A stretch of 64,000 nt of DNA from Chloroflexota bacterium (GTDB lineage Bacteria > Chloroflexota > Limnocylindria > Limnocylindrales > CSP1-4): NCBI GenBank assembly GCA_015478725.1, contig JADMIG010000008.1, positions 1,174 to 65,173 on the forward strand. Reading direction: 5' to 3'. The position numbers and the translations under genes are program-made. A model generated the notes under the pieces. The model did not search any database and was not told where the DNA came from. It saw only the letters and a list, made by a program, of their open reading frames with translations. Of the stretch, positions 1 to 10,718 are shown one piece after another. Positions within the stretch are counted from its first letter, which is position 1, and every line of letters starts with the position of its first letter.

Positions 1-3000
1 TCGTTGACGAGGACCTCCACCGGGTAGAAGCCCATCGGCTGGGCGTTGATGAGCCCGACGACGAACTGGGCCGGATAGAACAGCTTGAGGAACGCCGACT
101 CGTAGGCCGTCCGGGCGAACGCGGCCGCGTGCGACTTCGCGAACCCGAAGCTCGCGAACGCGGCCACCTGGCGGAAGAGCTCCTCCGCCATCGGTTCGTC
201 CATCCCCGGCTGCCGCAGGCACCCGTCCACGAACCGCCGGTGGAGCTTCTCCATCTCCCGGCTCGAACGCCACGTGCCCATCGCCCGCCGGAAGCCATCC
301 GAGTCGGCCGGGCTGAAACCGGCGACATCGATGGCGATCCGCATGACCTGTTCCTGGTAGAGGATGACGCCGAGGCTGTCGCGAAGGATCGGCTCGAGGC
401 TCGGGTGGAGGTACGTCACCGGCTCGAGGCCCTGCTTGCGTCGCAGGTACGGATGGACCGCGTTGCCCTGGATCGGGCCCGGCCGGATGATCGCGACCTC
501 CACGACGAGGTCGTCGAGGTTCTGCGGTCGCGACTTCGGCAGCGTCTGCATCTGGGCCCGGCTCTCGACCTGGAAGACGCCCACCGTGTCCGCCGCCTGG
601 AGCATCGCGAAGACCTCGGCGATCTCCTCCGGCAGGCGGTCGAGGTCGAGACAGGTCGCGCAGTCGTGCTCGATGAGCTGGAGCGTCTCGTCGATCGCGG
701 CGAGCATGCCGAGGCCGAGCAGGTCGAGCTTGATGAGCCTGAGCGTCTCGACATCGCGCTTGTCGAACTGGACGACGACGCGGTCCTTCATCGTCGCTCG
801 CTCGAGTGGCGCGATGTCGATGAGCGGCGCGGCGGTCACGAGCATCCCGCCCGAATGGATGCTCAGGTGGCGGGGGAAGCCATCGATGCGGGCACAGAAC
901 TCGAGCCAGCGCTCCCAGTCGGACAGGCCGCGCGTGCTGCCACCGCGAGGCTGGGGCGGCGGCGCGGGTCGTCGCTCGGACGCTGGTCGTCCCGGCGCAA
1001 GGGACCCCGGCGCGGACGCTGGCCGTCCCGGCGCGACGACCCGATCGCGGTGGGTGAGATAGCCGGTCCCGCGCCCGGCTCGAAGCCAGGCGACGCTCGC
1101 TGGCGTGTCGCCCGGTCCGCCCTCATCGTCACCGGGACCACCCGTCCGGGTGGATGGCCCGCCGGGCAACCCCATCTCAGGCTCGTCCGATCGCCGGAAG
1201 AACTGCCCGAAGCCACCCTCCGACTCGAGGTCGCGACGGACCGTGACGCTGTCATACGTCTCGAGTGCCTTCGCCACCCGATCGACGAGCGGCCGCGGGA
1301 ACCCGAGCGCGATCCCCACCTCTCGCACCGCCGACCTGGCCCGGTACGTGACGAGATTGCAGACCATGCCGGTGTGTTCCGATCCGTACCGCCGGTACAC
1401 GTACTGGATCACCTCCTCTCGCCGCGCCGACGAGAAGTCGATGTCGACGTCCGGATACGTCGTCCGGCCCTCATTGATGAACCGCTCGAAGAGGAGGTTG
1501 TGGCGGATCGGGTCCACCCGGGTGATCCCGAGGACGTAGGCGACGAGCGAATCCGCCGCGCTCCCCCGTCCCTGGGCGGGGATGCCGCGCTCGCGGGCGA
1601 ACCGCATGAGATCCCAGCAGATGAGGAAGAACTCGGCGAGGCCGGTCCGTTCGATGACGTCGAGCTCGTGGGCGAGCTGGGTCACGACCGCCGGGGTCAT
1701 CGGATGGTAGCGGCGGCGGACTCCCGTCCAGCACAGGTCCGAGAGGTGACTGAACGGCGTCTCCCCACCGGGCACCGGGAACCCGGGGAACCGATACCGC
1801 TCGAACCCGAGATCCACCGTGCACGCCGCCGCGAGCTCGGCGGCCGAGCGGATGCCCTCGGCCCAGGCACGGGCCGTCCGCGCGTCGTCCATCGAGCCGA
1901 CGGCGGTCGCAGGGTCACCCGGCGGCAACGCCGCGAGCTCGCCGGCCGACTTGAGGTAGTGCTCGCCGGACGGGGACCGCAGGTCGCCGAGCGTGTCGAG
2001 CGTCCGGCCGTGACGGATCGCGGTGAGGACATCGTGGAGCTCACGATCCGTCGGTTCGGCGTAGTGGACATCGTTCGTGACGACGACCGGCAAGCCGAGA
2101 TCGTCGGCGAGCGCCGCCGTCTCCGCCACGAGCCAGTCGTCACCGGGGAGGAGGTGATGACCGAGCTCGAGGACGAACCCCGCCGAGGCGACCGCCGAGC
2201 CCTCTCGGACCGCCGGGCGACCGCTCGCCGCCGAACCGCCGCTTCCCGCCGGGCCGCTGCTCCGCGCCGGGCGACCGCTCGCCGCCGAACCGCTGAACAG
2301 TCGCGCATATCGCTCGCCCACAGCCCGGGCGCCCTCGAGGTCACCGGCGATGAGCCGTCGGGCGATCTCGCCGTCGCGGCAGCCTGAGAGCGCGACGATG
2401 CCCTCGACGTGCTCGGCGAGGAGTGCCTGGGTGAACCGTGGGACACCCTTCGTCCCGGCCATGTTCGCCCGGGAGACGAGGCGGCAGAGGCTCCGATACC
2501 CGGCCGCATCCCGGGCGAGAAGGACGAGGTGCGGCCCGCGCATCGCGGGGCTCACACCTCGAAGGTCCTCCCTGACCACCGGCCGGTGTCCGGGAGGTCG
2601 AGCCCGATCGGGCCGTGGCCGAGCCGGCAGCCCGTCCACGGGGACGCGTCCCGCGAACGGCACTCGCGCGGATCCTCGATCCACCCAGTCCCCGCCATCC
2701 ACCTCGCGGCGGCCGCGAGCCCCACCGGACGACCGTCGTGGCGGCACCACGATCCCGCCCGGATCCGGGACGGCCGGGTTGACGAGCTCGATCTCCACCC
2801 CGATGACCGGATGGAGGCCCGCCGCCTCGGCCGCCGTCGCGAAGCGCACGACCCCGTAGAGGCCCTGATGATCGGTGATGGCGAGACCGGTCAGGCCGAG
2901 ACGGACCGCTCGTTCGATGAGCTCGTCCGGCGGCGACGCCCCGTCGAGGAACGAGAAGTTCGTGTGGCAATGGAGCTCGGCGTAGGGGGTCGAGTCGGTC

Positions 3001-3002
3001 AT
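1..3002 (-). CDS. dnaE2: Error-prone DNA polymerase III alpha subunit DnaE2 (N-terminal ~1000 aa; gene continues beyond the left edge)
   Basis: My own minus-strand translation from ATG at 3002 gives MTDSTPYAELHCHTNFSFLDGASPPDELIERAVRLGLTGLAITDHQGLYGVV (PHP domain start). Later motifs are GIPAQGRGSAADSLVAYVLGIT, SIHSGGMLVT and GVFQVESRAQMQTLPK. It is absent from the ORF track because no stop lies inside the window. A LexA box sits 16 nt upstream, and imuA/imuB are adjacent. Confidence 0.93.
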   Translation of the reverse strand, partial: MTDSTPYAELHCHTNFSFLDGASPPDELIERAVRLGLTGLAITDHQGLYGVVRFATAAEAAGLHPVIGVEIELVNPAVPDPGGIVVPPRRSSGGARGRREVDGGDWVDRGSARVPFAGRVPVDGLPARPRPDRARPPGHRPVVREDLRGVSPAMRGPHLVLLARDAAGYRSLCRLVSRANMAGTKGVPRFTQALLAEHVEGIVALSGCRDGEIARRLIAGDLEGARAVGERYARLFSGSAASGRPARSSGPAGSGGSAASGRPAVREGSAVASAGFVLELGHHLLPGDDWLVAETAALADDLGLPVVVTNDVHYAEPTDRELHDVLTAIRHGRTLDTLGDLRSPSGEHYLKSAGELAALPPGDPATAVGSMDDARTARAWAEGIRSAAELAAACTVDLGFERYRFPGFPVPGGETPFSHLSDLCWTGVRRRYHPMTPAVVTQLAHELDVIERTGLAEFFLICWDLMRFARERGIPAQGRGSAADSLVAYVLGITRVDPIRHNLLFERFINEGRTTYPDVDIDFSSARREEVIQYVYRRYGSEHTGMVCNLVTYRARSAVREVGIALGFPRPLVDRVAKALETYDSVTVRRDLESEGGFGQFFRRSDEPEMGLPGGPSTRTGGPGDDEGGPGDTPASVAWLRAGRGTGYLTHRDRVVAPGRPASAPGSLAPGRPASERRPAPPPQPRGGSTRGLSDWERWLEFCARIDGFPRHLSIHSGGMLVTAAPLIDIAPLERATMKDRVVVQFDKRDVETLRLIKLDLLGLGMLAAIDETLQLIEHDCATCLDLDRLPEEIAEVFAMLQAADTVGVFQVESRAQMQTLPKSRPQNLDDLVVEVAIIRPGPIQGNAVHPYLRRKQGLEPVTYLHPSLEPILRDSLGVILYQEQVMRIAIDVAGFSPADSDGFRRAMGTWRSSREMEKLHRRFVDGCLRQPGMDEPMAEELFRQVAAFASFGFAKSHAAAFARTAYESAFLKLFYPAQFVVGLINAQPMGFYPVEVLVN
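2211..2293. repeat. 29-bp direct repeat (2211-2239 and 2265-2293) spaced in frame inside dnaE2
   Basis: cgccgggcgaccgctcgccgccgaaccgc occurs twice, 54 bp apart. It encodes a duplicated GSAASGRPA low-complexity insert after the PHP domain. Confidence 0.8.
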
Positions 3003-3017
3003 CGGGACCGTCCATGA

Positions 3018-3033
3018 TAGAACAGATGTTCTA
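3018..3033. promoter_or_regulatory. LexA/SOS box (Cheo-type GAAC-N4-GTTC palindrome) between dnaE2 and the divergent mini-ORFs
   Basis: TAGAACAGATGTTCTA is a perfect palindrome. On the minus strand it is followed by TATCAT (-10-like), then 12 nt, then the dnaE2 ATG. On the plus strand it is flanked by TACCAT. A near-identical copy lies at 6143-6158. Confidence 0.85.
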
Positions 3034-3081
3034 CCATGTGATCCGCAACATCGCGTCCCTCAACCGCGTCTCAGAGCCGCG

Positions 3082-3207
3082 ATGAAGCAGATCGTCCCGA
3101 AGGTCAGATGGCTCGCCCGACCGGTCGCCCTGACCATCGTCGTCGTCCTGCTCATCGAGGTCCTCCTCCCCCTCGCACTCGCCACCGCATCCGGTCCGGC
3201 GAGCTGA
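3082..3207 (+). CDS. Mini-ORF P1, 41-aa hydrophobic (single-TM) peptide
   Basis: MKQIVPKVRWLARPVALTIVVVLLIEVLLPLALATASGPAS. GC3 is about 36/41. It starts 49 nt downstream of the LexA box. It is too short for the ORF track, and no clear SD is present. Confidence 0.4.
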   Translation: MKQIVPKVRWLARPVALTIVVVLLIEVLLPLALATASGPAS

Positions 3208-3328
3208 ACTCGGCTCTCCCGGGCCTGGGGGTCCGGGAGAGCCGATACGAGGCACCTCCGTCGAGCACGCCACGGTAGGATGCCCTGGCACCCACCTGTC
3301 CTCGGCACTGACAGAGGAGACGACGCCG

Positions 3329-3427
3329 ATGGGACCACGACCGCGCGACATCCTCGGAGCCGGCCTGTTGACGGTCGTCCTCATGGGGCTCGTCGTCCTG
3401 CTGTTCATCGGGAATCTCCATCCCTGA
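3329..3427 (+). CDS. Mini-ORF P2, 32-aa hydrophobic (single-TM) peptide
   Basis: MGPRPRDILGAGLLTVVLMGLVVLLFIGNLHP. A GAGGAGA SD lies 8 nt upstream (3314-3320). It shares the PRD(I)LG + TM architecture with P3. Confidence 0.5.
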   Translation: MGPRPRDILGAGLLTVVLMGLVVLLFIGNLHP

Positions 3428-3519
3428 GACGCGCGCAGCCACCGCGCACGATGGGCCGGATGCAGCTACGATTCAGATCGGGTCGGCCGAGATCCGATCC
3501 ACACGGTCTGGGGGTGATC

Positions 3520-3627
3520 ATGCAGTCGGCGAAGCCTCGCGATCTGGGGCTCCTCGTCCTCGTCGTCGGCCTGTTCGCGATCCTCTTCCTGAGCTCGCTC
3601 ATCGTCGGCTCACCGGCTGTCCGCTGA
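3520..3627 (+). CDS. Mini-ORF P3, 35-aa hydrophobic (single-TM) peptide
   Basis: MQSAKPRDLGLLVLVVGLFAILFLSSLIVGSPAVR. A GGGGGTGA SD-like stretch lies just upstream. GC3 is high. It is the C-terminal part of track ORF 3280..3627. Confidence 0.5.
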   Translation: MQSAKPRDLGLLVLVVGLFAILFLSSLIVGSPAVR

Positions 3628-3655
3628 TCCGGCCAAGGGCGGCCGGTTCCCTCGG

Positions 3656-3904
3656 TCAGTCGTACAGCCGTTCGAGATGCCATGTCCCGTCGACCCGATC
3701 GAGATAGACGAGGGCCAGCCAGCGGGACCCCACGATCTTGAAGTAGTCGCGCGCGATCGGATCGCGCCACCACGATTCGTCGATCCGCCAGCGGGCGCAG
3801 ACCTCCACCGGTTCCCACCGATCACCCCAGCGGATCGCGGCGGGACGACCGTCCGGACCGAGTCTGGCCTCGATCGACGGATGCTCGCGGAGGAGGCGGG
3901 TCAT
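3656..3904 (-). CDS. 82-aa Trp/Arg-rich protein of unknown function, translationally coupled to imuB
   Basis: MTRLLREHPSIEARLGPDGRPAAIRWGDRWEPVEVCARWRIDESWWRDPIARDYFKIVGSRWLALVYLDRVDGTWHLERLYD. Its ATG (3904-3902) overlaps the imuB stop (3903-3901) as ATGA. It is the tail of track ORF 3656..4918. Confidence 0.7.
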   Translation of the reverse strand: MTRLLREHPSIEARLGPDGRPAAIRWGDRWEPVEVCARWRIDESWWRDPIARDYFKIVGSRWLALVYLDRVDGTWHLERLYD

Positions 3905-5277
3905 CGAACGCCCGGCCGCGCGCCCGGACCGGAACCCGGCCGCGCGCCCTGGCCGGAGCCTGCCGCACCGGAGCCTGCCGCACCGGAGCCTGCCGCACCG
4001 GAGTCGATGTCCACCCACCGCCAGCGCGCCTCGGCGAGCGGCGCCTCCGGATCGACGATCTCCATCCGCCGGATCCGATCGTCGCCGAAGGTCAGGGCGA
4101 GTCGGGCGAGCTGCCAGCCAAGCCGCGACGCGCGAGCCGCCTGTGGGACGAACAGCGACAGCTGCTGACCGGCGGCCGGGACGACACCGGCGAGCTCCAG
4201 CTCCATCCGCTCGACCGATGCGGGCGGCGGCGTCCGCTCGAGGCGGGCGAACAGGAGGCGCTCGATCACCGAACCCTCGGCCGTGGGCTCGGGGAGTCGC
4301 TGGCGGTACTCGACGACGGGCGGTCCGGTGGCGGCCGTGACCGGACCGTCGGTCGCGGCCGGGGCGTCGAGCGTCAGTCGGAGGTACGCGTCGGCGGCGG
4401 CCATCCCGCGGCCGGCGAGTTGATCGGCAAGGACGGCCACGAGTCGATGGAGGAGGAACCGGAGCGGTTCGAGGTCGTCGACCGGCGGCTCGATCGGGAG
4501 GGCGAACGCGAGGCGTTCCGGCGCCCGGCGGGGCATGAACGGCTCCGTCTCCTCTCCGCGGGACCGGGCCCGGATGCGTCCCCCCTCCGGTCCGAACCGG
4601 GCGACGAGCGCCGAGCGCGGGATCTCCGCGATCTGCCCGATCCGTCGAAGTCCGAGCCGGACGAGTCGAGCCCGGATCTCCGCATCTCCGGTGAGGAGCG
4701 CGGAGGGGAACGGGGCGAGGAACGCCGCCTCCGCTCCAGGCGGGACGGATCGGAGCCCCATCCGTGAGAGGTCGGACCCCGCCGGGGTGGGCGCGGCATC
4801 GCTGGCGGCGATGAGGGCCGCGAAGCGTGTCCCGGCGATCCCCGCCCGCGGCGCGCCGGGCAGGAGCGTCTCGAGCGCCTCGACGACTCCCCGGACAAGC
4901 GTCGGCTCCGGACCCCACAGCCGCTCGAGGCCGTCGAGCTGGAGCTCGATCCGCCCGACGGCAGGGTGACCGGCATCCGTCTCCCCGGCCACGCCTGGGC
5001 TGAACCGGGCGAGCCGTTCGAGCACACGTTCGAGCGCCGCCGCGTCGGACGCCGGATCAGGGTCGAGGAAGACCGCCTCAGGGGCGAGTCGCTGGGCGCT
5101 CCCGAGCGACATCCCCCTTCGGACGCCGAGCGCTCGGGCGTCCGGACTCGCGTCGAGCACGATCCCGGGCGTCCATGGCTGACCGCCGAGGATCACCGGC
5201 CCCTGCGGGAACGAGGCGGAGCGCGACCGGGCGAGCCGGAGGAGGAGATGCGGCCAGTGGAGGTGGAGGAGGCGCAT
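3901..5277 (-). CDS. imuB: ImuB, Y-family-polymerase-like mutasome subunit
   Basis: Start is MRLLHLHWPHLLLRLARSR...VILGGQPWTPGIVLDASPDARALGVRRGMSLGSAQRLAPEAVFLDPDP, a typical ImuB N-terminus. The gene lies between imuA and dnaE2. It uses the in-frame internal start of track ORF 3901..6150. Confidence 0.85.
   Translation of the reverse strand: MRLLHLHWPHLLLRLARSRSASFPQGPVILGGQPWTPGIVLDASPDARALGVRRGMSLGSAQRLAPEAVFLDPDPASDAAALERVLERLARFSPGVAGETDAGHPAVGRIELQLDGLERLWGPEPTLVRGVVEALETLLPGAPRAGIAGTRFAALIAASDAAPTPAGSDLSRMGLRSVPPGAEAAFLAPFPSALLTGDAEIRARLVRLGLRRIGQIAEIPRSALVARFGPEGGRIRARSRGEETEPFMPRRAPERLAFALPIEPPVDDLEPLRFLLHRLVAVLADQLAGRGMAAADAYLRLTLDAPAATDGPVTAATGPPVVEYRQRLPEPTAEGSVIERLLFARLERTPPPASVERMELELAGVVPAAGQQLSLFVPQAARASRLGWQLARLALTFGDDRIRRMEIVDPEAPLAEARWRWVDIDSGAAGSGAAGSGAAGSGQGARPGSGPGARPGVR
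3955..4003. repeat. 15-bp tandem repeat x3.3 in the imuB 3' end
   Basis: ggagcctgccgcacc is repeated and encodes (SGAAG)n at the ImuB C-terminus. An adjacent duplicated cccggccgcgcgccc (3911-3925 and 3935-3949) encodes GARPG. Confidence 0.85.
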
Positions 5278-6142: not shown

Positions 6143-6158
6143 TAGAACATCTGTTCTA
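6143..6158. promoter_or_regulatory. LexA/SOS box upstream of imuA
   Basis: TAGAACATCTGTTCTA. The flank ATGATAGAACA..TGTTCTA is shared with box 1. On the minus strand it is followed by TATCAT, then 10 nt, then the imuA ATG. Confidence 0.85.
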
Positions 6159-6284
6159 TCAGTCAAGGCCCGGGCAGCCTCCGGATGGTCCCGGGACGGC
6201 CCCACGGTCTCCGGAACCGGCCCCACGACGCTCCCGCCCATCGTCACGAGAACGTCAACGAGCCCCATTACGCTGCTCGATACG

Positions 6285-8237: not shown

Positions 8238-8313
8238 GGGGATGTAGCTCAGCTGGAAGAGCACCGCGTTCGCATCGCGGGGGTCAGGGGTTCGAGTCCC
8301 CTCATCTCCACCA
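8238..8313 (+). tRNA. tRNA-Ala (anticodon CGC)
   Basis: It folds by hand into a 76-nt cloverleaf with acceptor GGGGATG/CATCTCC and G3:U70. The anticodon loop is TTCGCAT, the T-loop is TTCGAGT, and CCA is encoded. Confidence 0.9.
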
Positions 8314-9844
8314 TTCCCTTCTGTTCGCGAACCGCATCCTCTCCTTCCCATGCCCCCGGCGACACCGGCGCCCTCGGCACCCGGTAGGTCGGTCGGATGT
8401 CGGTCGGCGACACGACCCGGATCTCCTCGATCAGGAGGCGCAGCAGCGCCTTGGTGCGCGGCGTCGGGATCTGCTCCAGGATCTCACCAAGGGCCTCGCT
8501 GAGCGACCAGGAGATGAAGGCGATCTCGTCGGGACCGATTGCCTGCTCGGTCACACCGTCTGGGAGAGCCGCCCGTTCGTCCTCGATCGTCCGGATGCGA
8601 GCCTGGAGGCCCTCCACCCGCTCCCGGCAGAGCTCCGGGCTCAGCTGCCCGGCTTCGAAGCTCGCGAAGTAGCGATCGATCCGGACCCGCAGCTCGGCGG
8701 CCTCGGCGTCGAGCGCGACTCGCTTTTCGGCATGGGCGACCTCGGACGTGCGCAGCGCGGCCTCCATCTCCTCGATGGCCGCGCCGATCAATGAGGTGTC
8801 GGCGTAGACCTCGCTCATCTGTCCGAGGATCGCCTTCTCCAACTCGTCCTTGGGCAGGCGCGCCTGATCGCAGCCCGCGCGCCCGTAGCGGCTCCGGGCG
8901 TAGCAGGTGTAGTAGGCGTAGCGGCGACCACCGCGGCCCCGTGCGGCCGCACCGATGAGGCGATGGCCGCAGCGGTCGCACACGATGGGGAGGCCGGAGA
9001 GGAGGTAGTCCGACCCGTCGGTGCGGCGCGAGCCGGGCTCCGCGGCGCGCCGTGCCAGGATCGCGCCGGCCGCATCGAACAGCCCTTGCTCCACGAGCGG
9101 CTCGTGATGCCCGATGTACCAGACGCCGCGGAACGGCACCTCGCCGAGATAGACCCGGTTGCGCAGGATGTCGAGGATCGCCGTGCGCGACCAGAGGTGG
9201 CCGTAGCGGGTGCGCAGGCCACGGGCGTTCAGCGCAGCCGCGATGACCGTCGAGCCTTGCCGATCTTCCGCGTAGCGGTGGAAGATCTCGCGCAGCACCG
9301 GGGCCGCCGCCGGATCGGGCGAGAGGCCGGCCGTCCCGTCGAGCTTGCGGTACCCGAAGGGGTACGTCCCGACCGTCCACCCGCCGCTCTTCGCCTTGCG
9401 CTCCATGCCCGCGGCGATGCGCTCGACGATCGAGGAACGCTCGAACTGGGCGAAGACGCCCAGCATCTGCATCATCATGAGCCCGGCAGGGGTGGCGGTG
9501 TCGAAGGGCTCGGTGGCCGAGCGGAAGGCGACCCCCACCACCTGGAGCTCCTCGATGAGGGTCCCGAGCTGGGCCAGGTTGCGGCTCAGCCGATCAACCC
9601 GATAGGTGAGGAGCAGGTCGAACCCGCCCGCGGCCGCGGCCGCCCGCGCCGCCGCGAGGTCGGGACGCTCCAGGCTCTTGCCGGAGGCCCGGTCAACGTA
9701 GCGGGCGACGATGTGCCAGCCGGGCTGGCTCGCGACATACGCGTCGAGGCGGTCGCTCTGGGCGCCGAGCGAGTAGGGCTGGTTCGTCTCGTCGGTGCTG
9801 ATGCGGCAGTACGTCGCGACCCGCACGGGCGCATCCGCGCTCAC
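8249..9844 (-). CDS. Large serine recombinase (resolvase domain + recombinase domain + zinc ribbon + coiled coil)
   Basis: VATYCRISTDETNQPYSLGAQ...YRVDRLSRN is the catalytic Ser region. IVCDRCGHRL...YYTCYARSRYGRAGC is the zinc beta-ribbon. The GTG start at 9844 overlaps the upstream stop as GTGA. The ORF has no stop until 8249, inside the tRNA-Ala gene, so its tail ...MVEMRGLEPLTPAMRTRCSSS is the antisense of the tRNA. Confidence 0.9.
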   Translation of the reverse strand: MSADAPVRVATYCRISTDETNQPYSLGAQSDRLDAYVASQPGWHIVARYVDRASGKSLERPDLAAARAAAAAGGFDLLLTYRVDRLSRNLAQLGTLIEELQVVGVAFRSATEPFDTATPAGLMMMQMLGVFAQFERSSIVERIAAGMERKAKSGGWTVGTYPFGYRKLDGTAGLSPDPAAAPVLREIFHRYAEDRQGSTVIAAALNARGLRTRYGHLWSRTAILDILRNRVYLGEVPFRGVWYIGHHEPLVEQGLFDAAGAILARRAAEPGSRRTDGSDYLLSGLPIVCDRCGHRLIGAAARGRGGRRYAYYTCYARSRYGRAGCDQARLPKDELEKAILGQMSEVYADTSLIGAAIEEMEAALRTSEVAHAEKRVALDAEAAELRVRIDRYFASFEAGQLSPELCRERVEGLQARIRTIEDERAALPDGVTEQAIGPDEIAFISWSLSEALGEILEQIPTPRTKALLRLLIEEIRVVSPTDIRPTYRVPRAPVSPGAWEGEDAVREQKGMVEMRGLEPLTPAMRTRCSSS

Positions 9845-10116
9845 GGCGTCTCCTCCCCGCCCTCGGTCGCCAGCTGCGCGATGCTCGTCCCGAGGAGCCG
9901 GGCAGCGTCGTCCGCATCGGACTCGGACAGCGGGGCGAACCCGGGGGCGCCGAGCCGGATCGTCCGCGCCACCGGCTTGCTCGGTACGAGCCGCTTCACG
10001 GCGGCCCCCACGATCGCGACGAGGATGAGCAGCAACACGATCGCGAGGTCGAGCGCGCGGTTGTCCCACGGTGGCCCGGAGCCGCTCGGAGGGGTGGCGG
10101 CGTCCCGTTCGTTCAC
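9841..10116 (-). CDS. 91-aa single-TM protein, unknown function (recombinase operon)
   Basis: VNERDAATPPSGSGPPWDNRALDLAIVLLLILVAIVGAAVKRLVPSK... It has GTGA overlaps at both ends (10113-10116 and 9841-9844). Confidence 0.55.
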   Translation of the reverse strand: MNERDAATPPSGSGPPWDNRALDLAIVLLLILVAIVGAAVKRLVPSKPVARTIRLGAPGFAPLSESDADDAARLLGTSIAQLATEGGEETP

Positions 10117-10718
10117 TTCGCGGCCTCCGGCACGCTCGGCGTCGACCGCCAGAAGAGCAGGCTGTAGTTCTGGCCGAACGTCGCCTTCGGCCGGTAGCCG
10201 TGCGGCTTGTGGTAGACGTGGGCGCCGCCCTTCTCGCCCGCTTGCTCGGCCCACTCGGCCTCTGGCGCGTACTTGCCACACGCCGCGCAGAAGGCGTGAT
10301 GGGGCACGAGCGCCGCGAGGCGGCGGGCCTCGCCCTGCGCCGCGGTGAGGTCGCGCCGCGCGCTCGCGAGATCCTCCTTTGCCTGCCGGAGGTCGGCCCT
10401 CGCCAACTTGAGGACGGCGCGTTCATCGCGCAGCTGCGAGGTAGTCGCCTTCAGCTCGTCGCGCAGCGTGCGCCCCGCGGCCAGCTGCGCCGCGGTCGCG
10501 GCTGCCTCGACCGCGGCCGCGTCACGCCCTTGCTCCAGCTCGGCAACGTGCCCCCGCAGCGTCTCCAGCTCGCCGCTCTCCAAGAGCCGCAGGCCATCGA
10601 GGATCGCCCGCCGCTTCGTGCCGCGGCTGAGCCCCAGACGATCCAGGAGATCCGACTCGGTTGGCGTGAACTCGACCAGGAAGCGGCGCTTGTACCGGTC
10701 GGCCGGTGGTGGTTGCAT
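10113..10718 (-). CDS. Ribbon-helix-helix-like + coiled-coil protein with C-terminal Cys/His cluster, unknown function
   Basis: The N-terminus KRRFLVEFTPTESDLLDRLGLSRGTKRRAILDGLRLLE shows an RHH pattern. The middle has heptad-like, Ala/Arg/Glu-rich repeats. The C-terminus is HHAFCAACGKY...HVYHKPHGY. An AT-rich TATATA/TATAGT element lies immediately upstream. Confidence 0.65.
   Translation of the reverse strand: MQPPPADRYKRRFLVEFTPTESDLLDRLGLSRGTKRRAILDGLRLLESGELETLRGHVAELEQGRDAAAVEAAATAAQLAAGRTLRDELKATTSQLRDERAVLKLARADLRQAKEDLASARRDLTAAQGEARRLAALVPHHAFCAACGKYAPEAEWAEQAGEKGGAHVYHKPHGYRPKATFGQNYSLLFWRSTPSVPEAAK

Follow-up and report, generated by a model that had tools for sequence, protein, structure and literature searches.

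The 653-bp gap that separates the imuA-imuB-orf82 operon from dnaE2 in the window, i.e., the whole 64-kb stretch of Chloroflexota DNA analysed here, appears to hold a clade-specific operon for three small single-pass membrane proteins that recurs across Limnocylindria-type Chloroflexota, and we consider it fairly probable that this operon is driven by an ECF-type promoter of its own and plays a role in the cell envelope. The gap contains three ORFs on the plus strand, here called P1, P2 and P3, opposite to the strand of both flanking units: imuA, imuB, orf82 and dnaE2 all lie on the minus strand, which corrects an earlier description, and the peptide genes are therefore divergent from dnaE2 and convergent with orf82. 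The divergent intergenic region between dnaE2 and P1 measures 79 nt, and at the other end the convergent stops of P3 (3627) and orf82 (3656) are 28 nt apart. The flanking genes encode a RecA-like ImuA, a Y-family-like ImuB and DnaE2, and LexA boxes are present at the locus.

Three small membrane protein genes opposite the mutasome genes

The three ORFs were borne out in the window sequence at the places and with the translations that the first-pass annotation had assigned to them: P1 (3082-3207, plus strand) encodes a peptide of 41 aa, MKQIVPKVRWLARPVALTIVVVLLIEVLLPLALATASGPAS, P2 (3329-3427, plus strand) one of 32 aa, MGPRPRDILGAGLLTVVLMGLVVLLFIGNLHP, and P3 (3520-3627, plus strand) one of 35 aa, MQSAKPRDLGLLVLVVGLFAILFLSSLIVGSPAVR. 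The coding-like GC3 remarked on there was reproduced, with values of 0.86 for P1, 0.79 for P2 and 0.86 for P3 compared with 0.88 in dnaE2 and 0.72 over the window as a whole, and the GC2 of the mini-ORFs, when GC was taken by codon position, was about 0.4. Upstream of P1 no Shine-Dalgarno (SD) sequence occurs. P2 is preceded by GAGGAG (3314-3319, plus strand), 9 nt before its start, and P3 by the SD-like CTGGGGGTG (3508-3516, plus strand), 3 nt before its start; both sites had been noticed beforehand, and both are conserved in relatives, with an AGGAG-like motif before P2 in 28 of 34 loci and a GGGGGA/GGGGGAGG motif before P3 in 55 of 56.

Iterated HMMs, run on 13,729 six-frame segments from 80 related Limnocylindria-type loci and the window, recovered P1 in 53, P2 in 33 and P3 in 55 of the related loci. 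There were 145 matches in all, every one of them within the orf82-dnaE2 gap and opposite the dnaE2 strand, with at most one match per family per locus save for a single cross-match of the P3 model on a P2. The stop positions of the homologs align across loci, a proline in the ..LLP.. motif is invariant in the P1 family, and conservation is highest in P3, for which tblastn E-values among related loci reach 3e-12; P2 shares about 80% identity with its counterparts in L113 and L114, the closest relatives of the window. Codon position 3 was the most substituted and position 2 the least in the mini-ORF alignments, and dN/dS in close pairs was 0.37 for P1, 0.25 for P2 and 0.34 for P3. Peptide-level conservation with synonymous drift, proposed by the first-pass annotation as something to look for in related loci, was thus found. 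Furthermore, the IMG gene caller placed genes of 41, 32 and 35 aa at the matching positions of L114.

It could be objected that the ORFs are untranslated, that it is RNA or DNA elements which are conserved and that the frames stay open as a by-product of the high GC content. Short ORFs are indeed common in DNA of 72% GC, the antisense frames are mostly open too, and little purifying selection is seen on P1 in the closest pair, where the window and its closest relative differ by 14 nonsynonymous and 5 synonymous codon changes, a sign of weak constraint. A by-product would nonetheless hardly account for peptide-level conservation in which the third codon position is the most variable, for starts, SD sequences and stop positions kept in more than 50 species-level genomes, for HMM matches confined to one strand and one place, or for the same ORFs being called by an independent gene caller, and we regard such an origin as highly improbable. 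On comparative sequence evidence, the status of the three mini-ORFs as real coding genes is considered confirmed.

Other frames in the interval were rejected. The minus-strand ORFs at 3031-3408 and 3405-3818 have a lower GC3 than GC1 and are also countered by a lipoprotein gene, X, that relatives carry on the peptide strand in that interval, while an in-frame extension of P3 to 115 aa, starting from 3280, is countered by the SD and start codon of the short form, which are conserved in 55 of 56 loci.

Each peptide has a single, strongly hydrophobic stretch of 19 residues (Kyte-Doolittle mean 2.8-3.0) and a positively charged N-terminus, in agreement with the one transmembrane (TM) helix per peptide that had been suggested. 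The kinship suspected between P2 and P3 also gained ground: a profile-profile comparison (hhalign) returned 68% probability with an E-value of 5e-5, and the two peptides have in common the layout R-x-R-D-x-G followed by the TM segment. P2 and P3 are probably paralogs, and P1 is unrelated to them. A reading of P2 as a Tat signal peptide was discarded because the twin arginine is not conserved.

Sequence searches of Pfam, NCBIfam, PADLOC and PDB returned no relatives of P1, P2 or P3 and no match for orf82, and the database homologs of the peptides are all named 'hypothetical'. Likewise, and as the first-pass annotation had remarked, we came across no earlier account of peptides of this kind at an imuA-imuB-dnaE2 locus. 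A phmmer search with P3 against 1.84 billion representative proteins gave 27 matches, of which 26 were proteins of 35-88 aa that end, or nearly end, with P3, and the remaining one a protein of 334 aa with five partial matches; a concatenated P1+P2+P3 profile, swamped by hydrophobic words, gave 15 weak protein matches, all P3- or P2-type and with over-long called N-termini. When a hand-made degenerate DNA pattern for P3 was scanned over 185,579 species genomes, it matched in this clade and at this locus only. The cassette is single-copy per genome, syntenic and vertically inherited across a class.

LexA box and ECF-type promoter motif

The LexA (Cheo-type) box TAGAACAGATGTTCTA lies at 3017-3032, with its core GAAC-N4-GTTC at 3020-3031, and the sequence around it reads as a sigma-70-type promoter for dnaE2 (3014-3042, minus strand), composed of a -35-like ATCACA (3042-3037), a 17-nt spacer in which the box is located, and the -10 hexamer TATCAT (3019-3014). 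This was the sole promoter-like site in a consensus scan of 2900-3750, which found neither a promoter-like site opposite the ORFs nor a T-run terminator. The dnaE2 ATG is at 3002, 11 nt past the -10 hexamer, leaving a leader that is very short or absent. Only two GAAC-N4-GTTC sites occur in the 64 kb, and the second, at 6145-6156 upstream of imuA, is part of an identical module of box and TATCAT, with the imuA start 8 nt after its -10 hexamer. Upstream of dnaE2 the box was found in 76 loci, in the spacer that follows the -35-like hexamer.

The first-pass annotation had proposed that the perfect palindrome, flanked by TATCAT on the minus strand (3019-3014) and by TACCAT on the plus strand (3032-3037), is shared by dnaE2 and the mini-ORFs. 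The palindrome and both flanks are present as described. In the fuller form of this proposal weighed here, LexA at 3017-3032 would repress a divergent P1-P3 transcript together with dnaE2, and the peptides would be made upon DNA damage, either as membrane toxins like TisB and DinQ or as division inhibitors like SidA, YneA and SosA. The box does lie in the 79-nt divergent region, and 13 nt separate its end from the downstream P1 -35 element in the window and five relatives, where it is 51 nt away from P1; the cassette is found at the mutasome locus only; the gene for a GH18 hydrolase, which in some relatives starts 45-60 nt from the box, recalls SOS-linked cell-wall proteins; and small SOS-induced membrane proteins are an established class (PMC6051672, PMC6851548, PMC13396833). 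The comparison among loci, however, points to dnaE2. The flank on the dnaE2 side is a nearly invariant TANNNT (67 of 76 loci), whereas the peptide-side flank fits TANNNT in 20 of 76, and the TACCAT of the window, taken as a -10 toward the mini-ORFs, reads TATGCA in the close relative L114. Box and P1 are 51 to 1816 nt apart, depending on the locus, with a GH18 gene between the two in eight loci (L015, L019, L022, L040, L049, L052, L062, L076), and a separate promoter-like motif stands near the P1 start at a fixed distance in every locus. Moreover, the dnaE2 promoter fully accounts for the position of the box, the peptides have no homology to any toxin family, and their single-copy, vertical and syntenic inheritance is unlike that of type I toxins.

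Genes of a LexA regulon have a conserved box that overlaps or adjoins their own core promoter, which the peptide genes lack. In three relatives orf82 abuts dnaE2, and both the cassette and the second LexA box are absent; from these loci, dnaE2 alone explains the box. A common use of the box, SOS induction of the peptides and their assignment to the tisB/dinQ/hokE class did not hold up against these data, and we consider SOS control of the cassette unlikely. Judged by its conservation, the box is part of the dnaE2 promoter and not a conserved control element of the peptides, and it would keep dnaE2 SOS-inducible now that the cassette separates dnaE2 from imuAB. In the window lineage, where it sits 13 nt from the -35 element, bound LexA could influence the peptide promoter. 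The case calls for caution: that a LexA box lies between two divergent genes is not in itself a sign that both are under SOS control, and the two can be told apart by comparing spacing and flank conservation among relatives.

The motif upstream of P1 is of the ECF-sigma type and spans 3045-3073 (plus strand), with -35 GCAAC (3045-3049), a 17-nt spacer and -10 CGTC(TCA) (3067-3073). In the form G(A/C/T)AAC-N17-CGTC it precedes P1 in 54 of 54 loci, with the 17-nt spacer in 53 of them, whatever the distance to the LexA box, and it stays directly upstream of P1 where the 1.6-kb GH18 gene separates P1 from the box. The 64-kb window contains one match, against 0.03 expected by chance, and all 59 strict copies in 905 kb of loci fall within the gap and on the cassette strand. 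A -35 element with AAC and a -10 element with CGT(C), 16-17 nt apart, are what defines an ECF promoter, and both are present here at that spacing. CGTC at -13 to -10 is a typical feature of such promoters (PMC3397946). We infer that the motif works as an ECF-sigma-type promoter for the peptide operon. Neither the window nor the 905 kb of loci yielded a sigma gene carrying the motif, and no ECF sigma gene came up when the window was searched by regular expression for the ECF region-2 signature.

The P1 start codon follows CGTC by 8-12 nt in all loci (exactly 8 nt in 43 of 54, and 11 nt in the window), a spacing that suggests a leaderless or near-leaderless mRNA, from which P1 is probably translated. 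Leaderless starts are plausible in this organism, since imuA and dnaE2 start 8 and 11 nt, respectively, past their -10 hexamers.

Structured RNA and envelope genes of the cassette

Directly after the P1 stop, an RNA hairpin is predicted at 3210-3245 (plus strand), with arms of 16 nt (3210-3225 and 3230-3245) that are 94% complementary, an MFE of -38 kcal/mol (z = -4.2) and the conserved loop CCUGGGGG (3224-3231). Of 53 loci, 39 have the exact loop octamer after P1, and each of these folds to a hairpin of 8 bp or more (32 distinct stems in all); the energy was -12 or lower in 97%, compared with 22% of flank shuffles, and three pair changes between the window and L114 are compensated. In a MAFFT alignment restricted to the short hairpin, bulges shifted the stems out of register and RNAalifold was of no help; the hairpin was assessed instead by per-sequence constrained folding with shuffles and by a longer alignment. 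In most relatives it is the first of a larger, four-hairpin element with G-rich, SD-like loops (CCUGGGGG/YUGGGG). Rfam returned nothing real in the gap, where a single sub-threshold viral match was due to chance, and no match for the element in relatives. The post-P1 hairpin could be a terminator, a stabiliser or a regulatory element, and together with the four-hairpin element it represents a candidate new cis-regulatory RNA. In the P3-orf82 gap, a short GC-rich hairpin (GATCCGGCC / GGCCGGTTC, 3626-3649) is a putative bidirectional terminator, and L113 has a different hairpin in its place.

In most relatives the lipoprotein gene X lies between P1 and P2 on the cassette strand, while it is absent from the window. 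Since L113 and L114 both possess X and the homology of the window to L113 starts only at 3314, X appears to have been lost in the window lineage. A Foldseek search with a model of X gave weak matches, at E ~0.04, to envelope lipoproteins, a hint of an envelope lipoprotein fold. In some relatives the gene for the secreted GH18 enzyme is also found on the cassette strand.

Tandem hydrophobic peptides accompanied by structured RNA might also be type I toxin-like or growth-arresting membrane peptides that act independently of LexA, with the SD-like-loop hairpin and the larger element as control RNA. The size (41, 32 and 35 aa), hydrophobicity, single TM helix and tandem arrangement of P1-P3 fit this possibility, as do the conserved, structured RNA with G-rich, SD-like loops after P1 and the fact that the peptides are without known function. 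On the other hand, neither an antisense promoter nor an antitoxin RNA was identified, P1 would lack a 5' UTR in which translation could be held off, and the SD sequences of P2 and P3 are exposed and conserved. A structured 5' UTR with an antisense RNA was not found at the locus, although an RNA acting in trans is conceivable, the SD sequences are not obviously sequestered, and searches of Pfam, NCBIfam, PADLOC and PDB placed the peptides in no described toxin family. The cassette occurs in one copy at one locus class-wide and is presumably co-transcribed with the lipoprotein gene in most relatives, and for this reason it looks like a housekeeping accessory operon and not an addiction module. 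A toxin function of this kind therefore seems quite improbable.

Proposed role and comparison with known systems

In an envelope operon of the kind favoured here, an ECF-type alternative sigma factor would recognise G(A/C)AAC-N17-CGTC at 3045-3070, and transcription would begin no more than a few bases from the P1 start codon, with leaderless or near-leaderless translation of P1, as the conserved motif suggests. The CCUGGGGG-loop hairpin may end or stabilise a short P1 transcript or modulate read-through, and P2 and P3, going by conservation, would be translated from their own SD sites. Hydrophobicity and the positive-inside rule predict that the peptides insert N-terminus-in, with one TM helix each. 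In the least secure step, which draws on context, their site of action would be the envelope, where they would probably modulate some membrane process during envelope stress, and in most relatives they would do so jointly with lipoprotein X. The locus offers three unannotated small-membrane-protein families (P1, and the apparently paralogous P2 and P3) in a class of abundant uncultured soil and freshwater Chloroflexota, and these come with a clear, testable promoter and translation model.

All 32 unbiased P3 matches lie at the mutasome locus, an absolute linkage of the cassette that is not explained if the cassette is seen as an unrelated neighbour. A functional tie to the mutasome is conceivable, in which an ECF input placed back-to-back with the LexA-controlled dnaE2 promoter, and transcribed convergently into imuAB-orf82, would supply peptides and structured RNA that link the state of the envelope to translesion synthesis or cell-cycle arrest. 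The sole pointer to it is that every P3 copy in the 185,579 species genomes is at this locus, and we give the idea little credence; if true, such a link would be a previously unknown one.

With the LexA-controlled type I systems of Enterobacteria (TisB/IstR-1, DinQ/AgrB, HokE), the cassette shares hydrophobic, single-helix peptides of ~30-40 aa. Toxins of this type are patchily distributed, often in several copies, and come with antisense RNAs and long, structured 5' UTRs, whereas here P1 appears to be without a 5' UTR, the SD sites of P2 and P3 are open, the cassette is single-copy and syntenic across the class, and the peptides are without Pfam or PADLOC matches. SidA of Caulobacter, YneA of Bacillus, SosA of Staphylococcus and DivS/ChiZ of Actinobacteria are also short proteins with one TM helix, encoded beside DNA-damage-response genes and near a LexA box. 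In these systems, however, the box overlaps the promoter of the protein itself, most of them being divergent from lexA, whereas here it is located in the promoter of dnaE2, and a separate ECF-type motif precedes the peptide genes; the sequences show no similarity, and three peptides stand in tandem.

The promoters of ECF-sigma (envelope-stress) regulons, such as those of sigma-E, sigma-W, sigma-M, sigma-X and Tt-RpoE1, resemble the P1 motif in the AAC of the -35 element, the CGTC of the -10 element and the fixed 17-nt spacing, and the products encoded downstream are here, too, envelope proteins (the peptides in all loci, the lipoprotein in most relatives and GH18 nearby in some); the cassette differs in having no sigma gene nearby and an apparently leaderless transcript. 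Finally, the genes for ImuA, ImuB and DnaE2 and the LexA boxes that flank the peptide genes are those of the imuA-imuB-dnaE2 mutasome cassette, but the organisation in this clade is a distinct one: imuB is followed by an additional, conserved gene of 82 aa, the peptide cassette interrupts the operon in the opposite orientation, and the promoter module with the LexA box occurs twice, its second copy standing before dnaE2.

The peptide genes and their neighbourhood

The window comes from a Chloroflexota organism with 71.6% GC, and the MAGs nearest to it go under the labels Candidatus Limnocylindrales or Limnocylindria. The large genes flanking the peptide ORFs are all minus-strand: imuA (6130-5078), which is RecA-like according to Pfam, imuB (about 5277-3901), which has the IMS domain, the 82-aa orf82 (3904-3656), whose start codon overlaps the imuB stop by 4 nt (ATGA), and dnaE2, which starts at 3002 and continues beyond the window edge. 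P1 (3082-3207), P2 (3329-3427) and P3 (3520-3627) occupy the plus strand of the 653-bp gap between orf82 and dnaE2 (3003-3655) and so point away from dnaE2 and towards orf82, a short GC-rich hairpin lying between the P3 and orf82 stops.

The first-pass annotation had considered the three ORFs to be coding and to specify one transmembrane helix each. They are present exactly as it described them, with third-position GC at the level of the window's real genes (0.86, 0.79, and 0.86 for P1, P2, and P3), and each encodes a basic N-terminus followed by a single very hydrophobic stretch of ~20 residues. In 80 related loci (designated by L and a number), retrieved from species-representative genomes with the DnaE2 N-terminus as query, tblastn gave peptide-level matches for all three ORFs. 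When these loci and the window were translated in six frames, iterated profile searches of the resulting 13,729 stop-to-stop segments recovered P1 in 54 sources, P2 in 34 and P3 in 56, window included. All 145 profile matches were on the strand opposite dnaE2 and within the orf82-dnaE2 gap, with aligned stop positions and at most one match per family per locus, the sole exception being a cross-hit of the P3 model on a P2. The family consensus sequences are ..R..AMVALAMLLILGLLPAVLAVQAA.. for P1, MEPxxRDxxGAGLLxLVLxxLVVLLVxxxLP for P2 and VQTxRPRDxGALxLVVGLFLVLFVVSxxLGSPxxR for P3. Codon position 3 took the most substitutions and position 2 the fewest, and dN/dS between close pairs was 0.37 (P1), 0.25 (P2), and 0.34 (P3). 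The peptide genes start with ATG or GTG, preceded by GGGGGA(GG) in 55 of the 56 P3 loci and by AGGAG in 28 of the 34 P2 loci, and in the close relative L114, a JGI contig, the IMG gene caller independently placed a 41-aa, a 32-aa, and a 35-aa gene at the P1, P2, and P3 positions. The observation of three genes is thus confirmed, on stronger grounds than were available from the window alone.

With P3 as query, a full HMMER scan returned 27 matches among 1.84 billion representative proteins. In 26 of them, proteins of 35-88 aa, P3 lies at the C terminus or close to it, and the remaining one, of 334 aa, has five partial matches; since nearly all are small, P3 is not a fragment of a larger protein family. 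Profile-profile comparison moderately supports the suggested paralogy of P2 and P3 (68% probability, E 5e-5) and finds P1 unrelated to both. No matching Pfam, NCBIfam, PADLOC or PDB sequences were found for P1-P3; the families are new, their public entries being unannotated or "hypothetical."

Some neighbouring features deserve mention in their own right. The orf82 product is Trp-rich and, with 73-90% identity among relatives, more conserved than DnaE2 or ImuB; its homologues fall into 620 protein clusters, of which almost all are exactly 82 aa long and all that bear a name are "hypothetical," and it had no match in Pfam, NCBIfam or PADLOC. It is a candidate for an ImuA-ImuB-DnaE2 mutasome component of this clade that has gone unrecognised. 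About 200 nt (5078-5277) are shared, in different frames, by the imuA ORF, whose stop is at 5078, and imuB, whose likely start is about 5277 (MRLLHLHW...); either the proline/arginine-rich ImuA tail is encoded over imuB or one boundary is miscalled. A plus-strand tRNA gene (8238-8310; 66 bits in Rfam) and the 3' end of a long minus-strand ORF for a large serine recombinase-like protein (8249-10426) also overlap, which may indicate the border of an integrated element.

Cassette variants and RNA hairpins

The orf82-dnaE2 gap ranges among loci from -5 bp to about 5 kb. In L021, L036, and L077 orf82 abuts dnaE2, and both the peptides and a LexA box before dnaE2 are lacking; all other loci carry a cassette of opposite-strand genes in the gap, usually in the order GH18 hydrolase (some loci), P1, X (a lipoprotein of 170-210 aa), P2 (not always present), P3, with occasional insertions of a TetR/DUF4260 pair or a HAD hydrolase. 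The GH18-family glycoside hydrolase is secreted, of ~520 aa, and lies between the dnaE2 LexA box and P1, its start ~45-60 nt from the box (L015, L019, L022, L040, L049, L052, L062, L076, L013, L020, L023, and L072; e.g., L015:4327-5889, minus strand). The window cassette is a minimal version. Its closest relatives, L113 (orf82 90% identical) and L114, both retain X between P1 and P2, and nucleotide homology with L113 begins only at 3314, indicating that the window lineage lost X here (3246-3313); a short block (CACGGTAGGATGC..CTGGCACCC), found upstream of X in L114, is kept upstream of P2. When the P3 core RPRDxGALxLVVG was turned into a degenerate DNA pattern and searched for, irrespective of context, in 185,579 species genomes, 32 matches came up, all in Chloroflexota MAGs of the window's group and all adjoined by orf82 and/or dnaE2, so the cassette is specific to this clade and locus.

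Immediately after the P1 stop in the window stands a stable hairpin (3210-3245) with the loop CCUGGGGG. The exact loop octamer occurs 3' of P1 in 39 of 53 relatives, and each of these 39 sequences folds into a hairpin of 8 bp or more; 32 different stems are represented, and the energies are far better than those of flank-shuffled controls; three compensated pairs distinguish the window from L114. In most relatives three more hairpins follow this one, and the four make up a conserved ~160-nt element between P1 and X (L002:5515-5699 and equivalents in 37 other loci, minus strand; loops CCUGGGGG, CUGGUGAGC, and YUGGGG), the full form of which is absent from the window/L113/L114 lineage, the window having the first hairpin only. 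RNAalifold predicted 32 pairs from the 38 sequences, 22 of them with compensatory double changes, and no Rfam family matched. The element is a candidate new cis-regulatory or 3'-UTR RNA, and could act as terminator, stabiliser, leader of X or Shine-Dalgarno mimic.

The probable cassette promoter and the dnaE2 promoter

The motif G(A/C)AAC - 17 nt - CGTC(TCA) stands directly upstream of P1 in 54 of 54 sources (spacer of 17 nt in 53); CGTC is separated from the first ATG or GTG by 8-12 nt throughout and by 8 nt in 43 of them. The window copy (3045-3073) is the sole one in 64 kb, with 0.03 expected by chance, and the 59 strict copies in 905 kb of related loci all fall on the cassette strand within the gap. 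ECF sigma-factor promoters are typified by AAC in the -35 element and CGTC at -13 to -10 (PMC3397946), and the motif thus points to an ECF-type promoter for P1. In this register the P1 start codon would lie at or within about 3 nt of the predicted transcription start, which would explain why P1 alone has no Shine-Dalgarno sequence. A search of the window turned up no gene for a cognate sigma factor. The ECF-like motif is also present in L013, L020, L023, L028, L072, L029, and L080 (e.g., L028:4130-4222, minus strand), in five of which no recognisable P1, P2 or P3 follows; in those loci a short conserved stretch (..GTCACMYGATGG..GCATGCCTGGGGG) takes their place, which suggests that P1 decayed and that the promoter and the GCCTGGGGG element outlasted it.

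The first-pass annotation had instead proposed that the LexA box before dnaE2 gates a divergent promoter shared with the peptide genes, which would encode SOS-induced membrane toxins. GAAC-N4-GTTC occurs at two sites in the window, 3020-3031 before dnaE2 and 6145-6156 before imuA, each within a module of -35-like hexamer, box and TATCAT, with the start codon 8 nt (imuA) or 11 nt (dnaE2) further on. The two modules (6145-6175 and 3014-3042) are near-identical (TAGAACAGATGTTCTATCATG), which, together with these start-codon distances, suggests that a LexA-controlled promoter was duplicated and that the mRNAs of both genes have no leader or almost none. In the 76 loci compared, the box sits within the dnaE2 promoter spacer, and the dnaE2-side hexamer is TANNNT in 67 and GATCAT in seven more; on the cassette side, where a -10-like hexamer had been read, TANNNT occurs in only 20 of 76, and the window's TACCAT is TATGCA in L114. 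A consensus promoter scan of 2900-3750 detected the dnaE2 promoter and none on the plus strand. The distance from box to P1 start is 51 nt in the window and five relatives, about 105 nt, or 813-1816 nt with other genes in between, and in eight loci where a 1.6-kb GH18 gene separates P1 from the box the ECF-like motif stays with P1. Comparison across loci hence lends no support to a shared LexA-gated promoter, the central premise of the SOS-toxin proposal; box and peptide genes stand in no conserved relation, and dnaE2 is enough to account for the box, since, parted from imuAB by the cassette, it requires an SOS promoter of its own. The proposal nonetheless keeps some probability: the window's box ends 13 nt upstream of the P1 -35 element, a distance at which back-to-back promoters make a lineage-specific LexA influence possible, and the absolute linkage of the cassette to the mutasome locus is unexplained.

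Probable nature of the cassette

We favour the reading that the three small single-pass membrane proteins are encoded as one operon, probably driven by the ECF-type promoter, in which the first cistron (P1) would be leaderless and the second and third (P2 and P3) led by Shine-Dalgarno sequences. In relatives the operon is associated with secreted or lipoprotein genes, and the AlphaFold model of X (pLDDT 80) weakly matches envelope lipoproteins, among them MTC28, DcrB, and LpqN (E about 0.04). From this context, our best guess is that, under envelope stress, the peptides modulate a process of the membrane or envelope. It is possible that envelope stress, the peptides and translesion synthesis are functionally linked, with synteny as the one line of support; if true, this would be the more exciting reading of the cassette. 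Small membrane proteins under the control of alternative sigma factors are themselves of a known kind.
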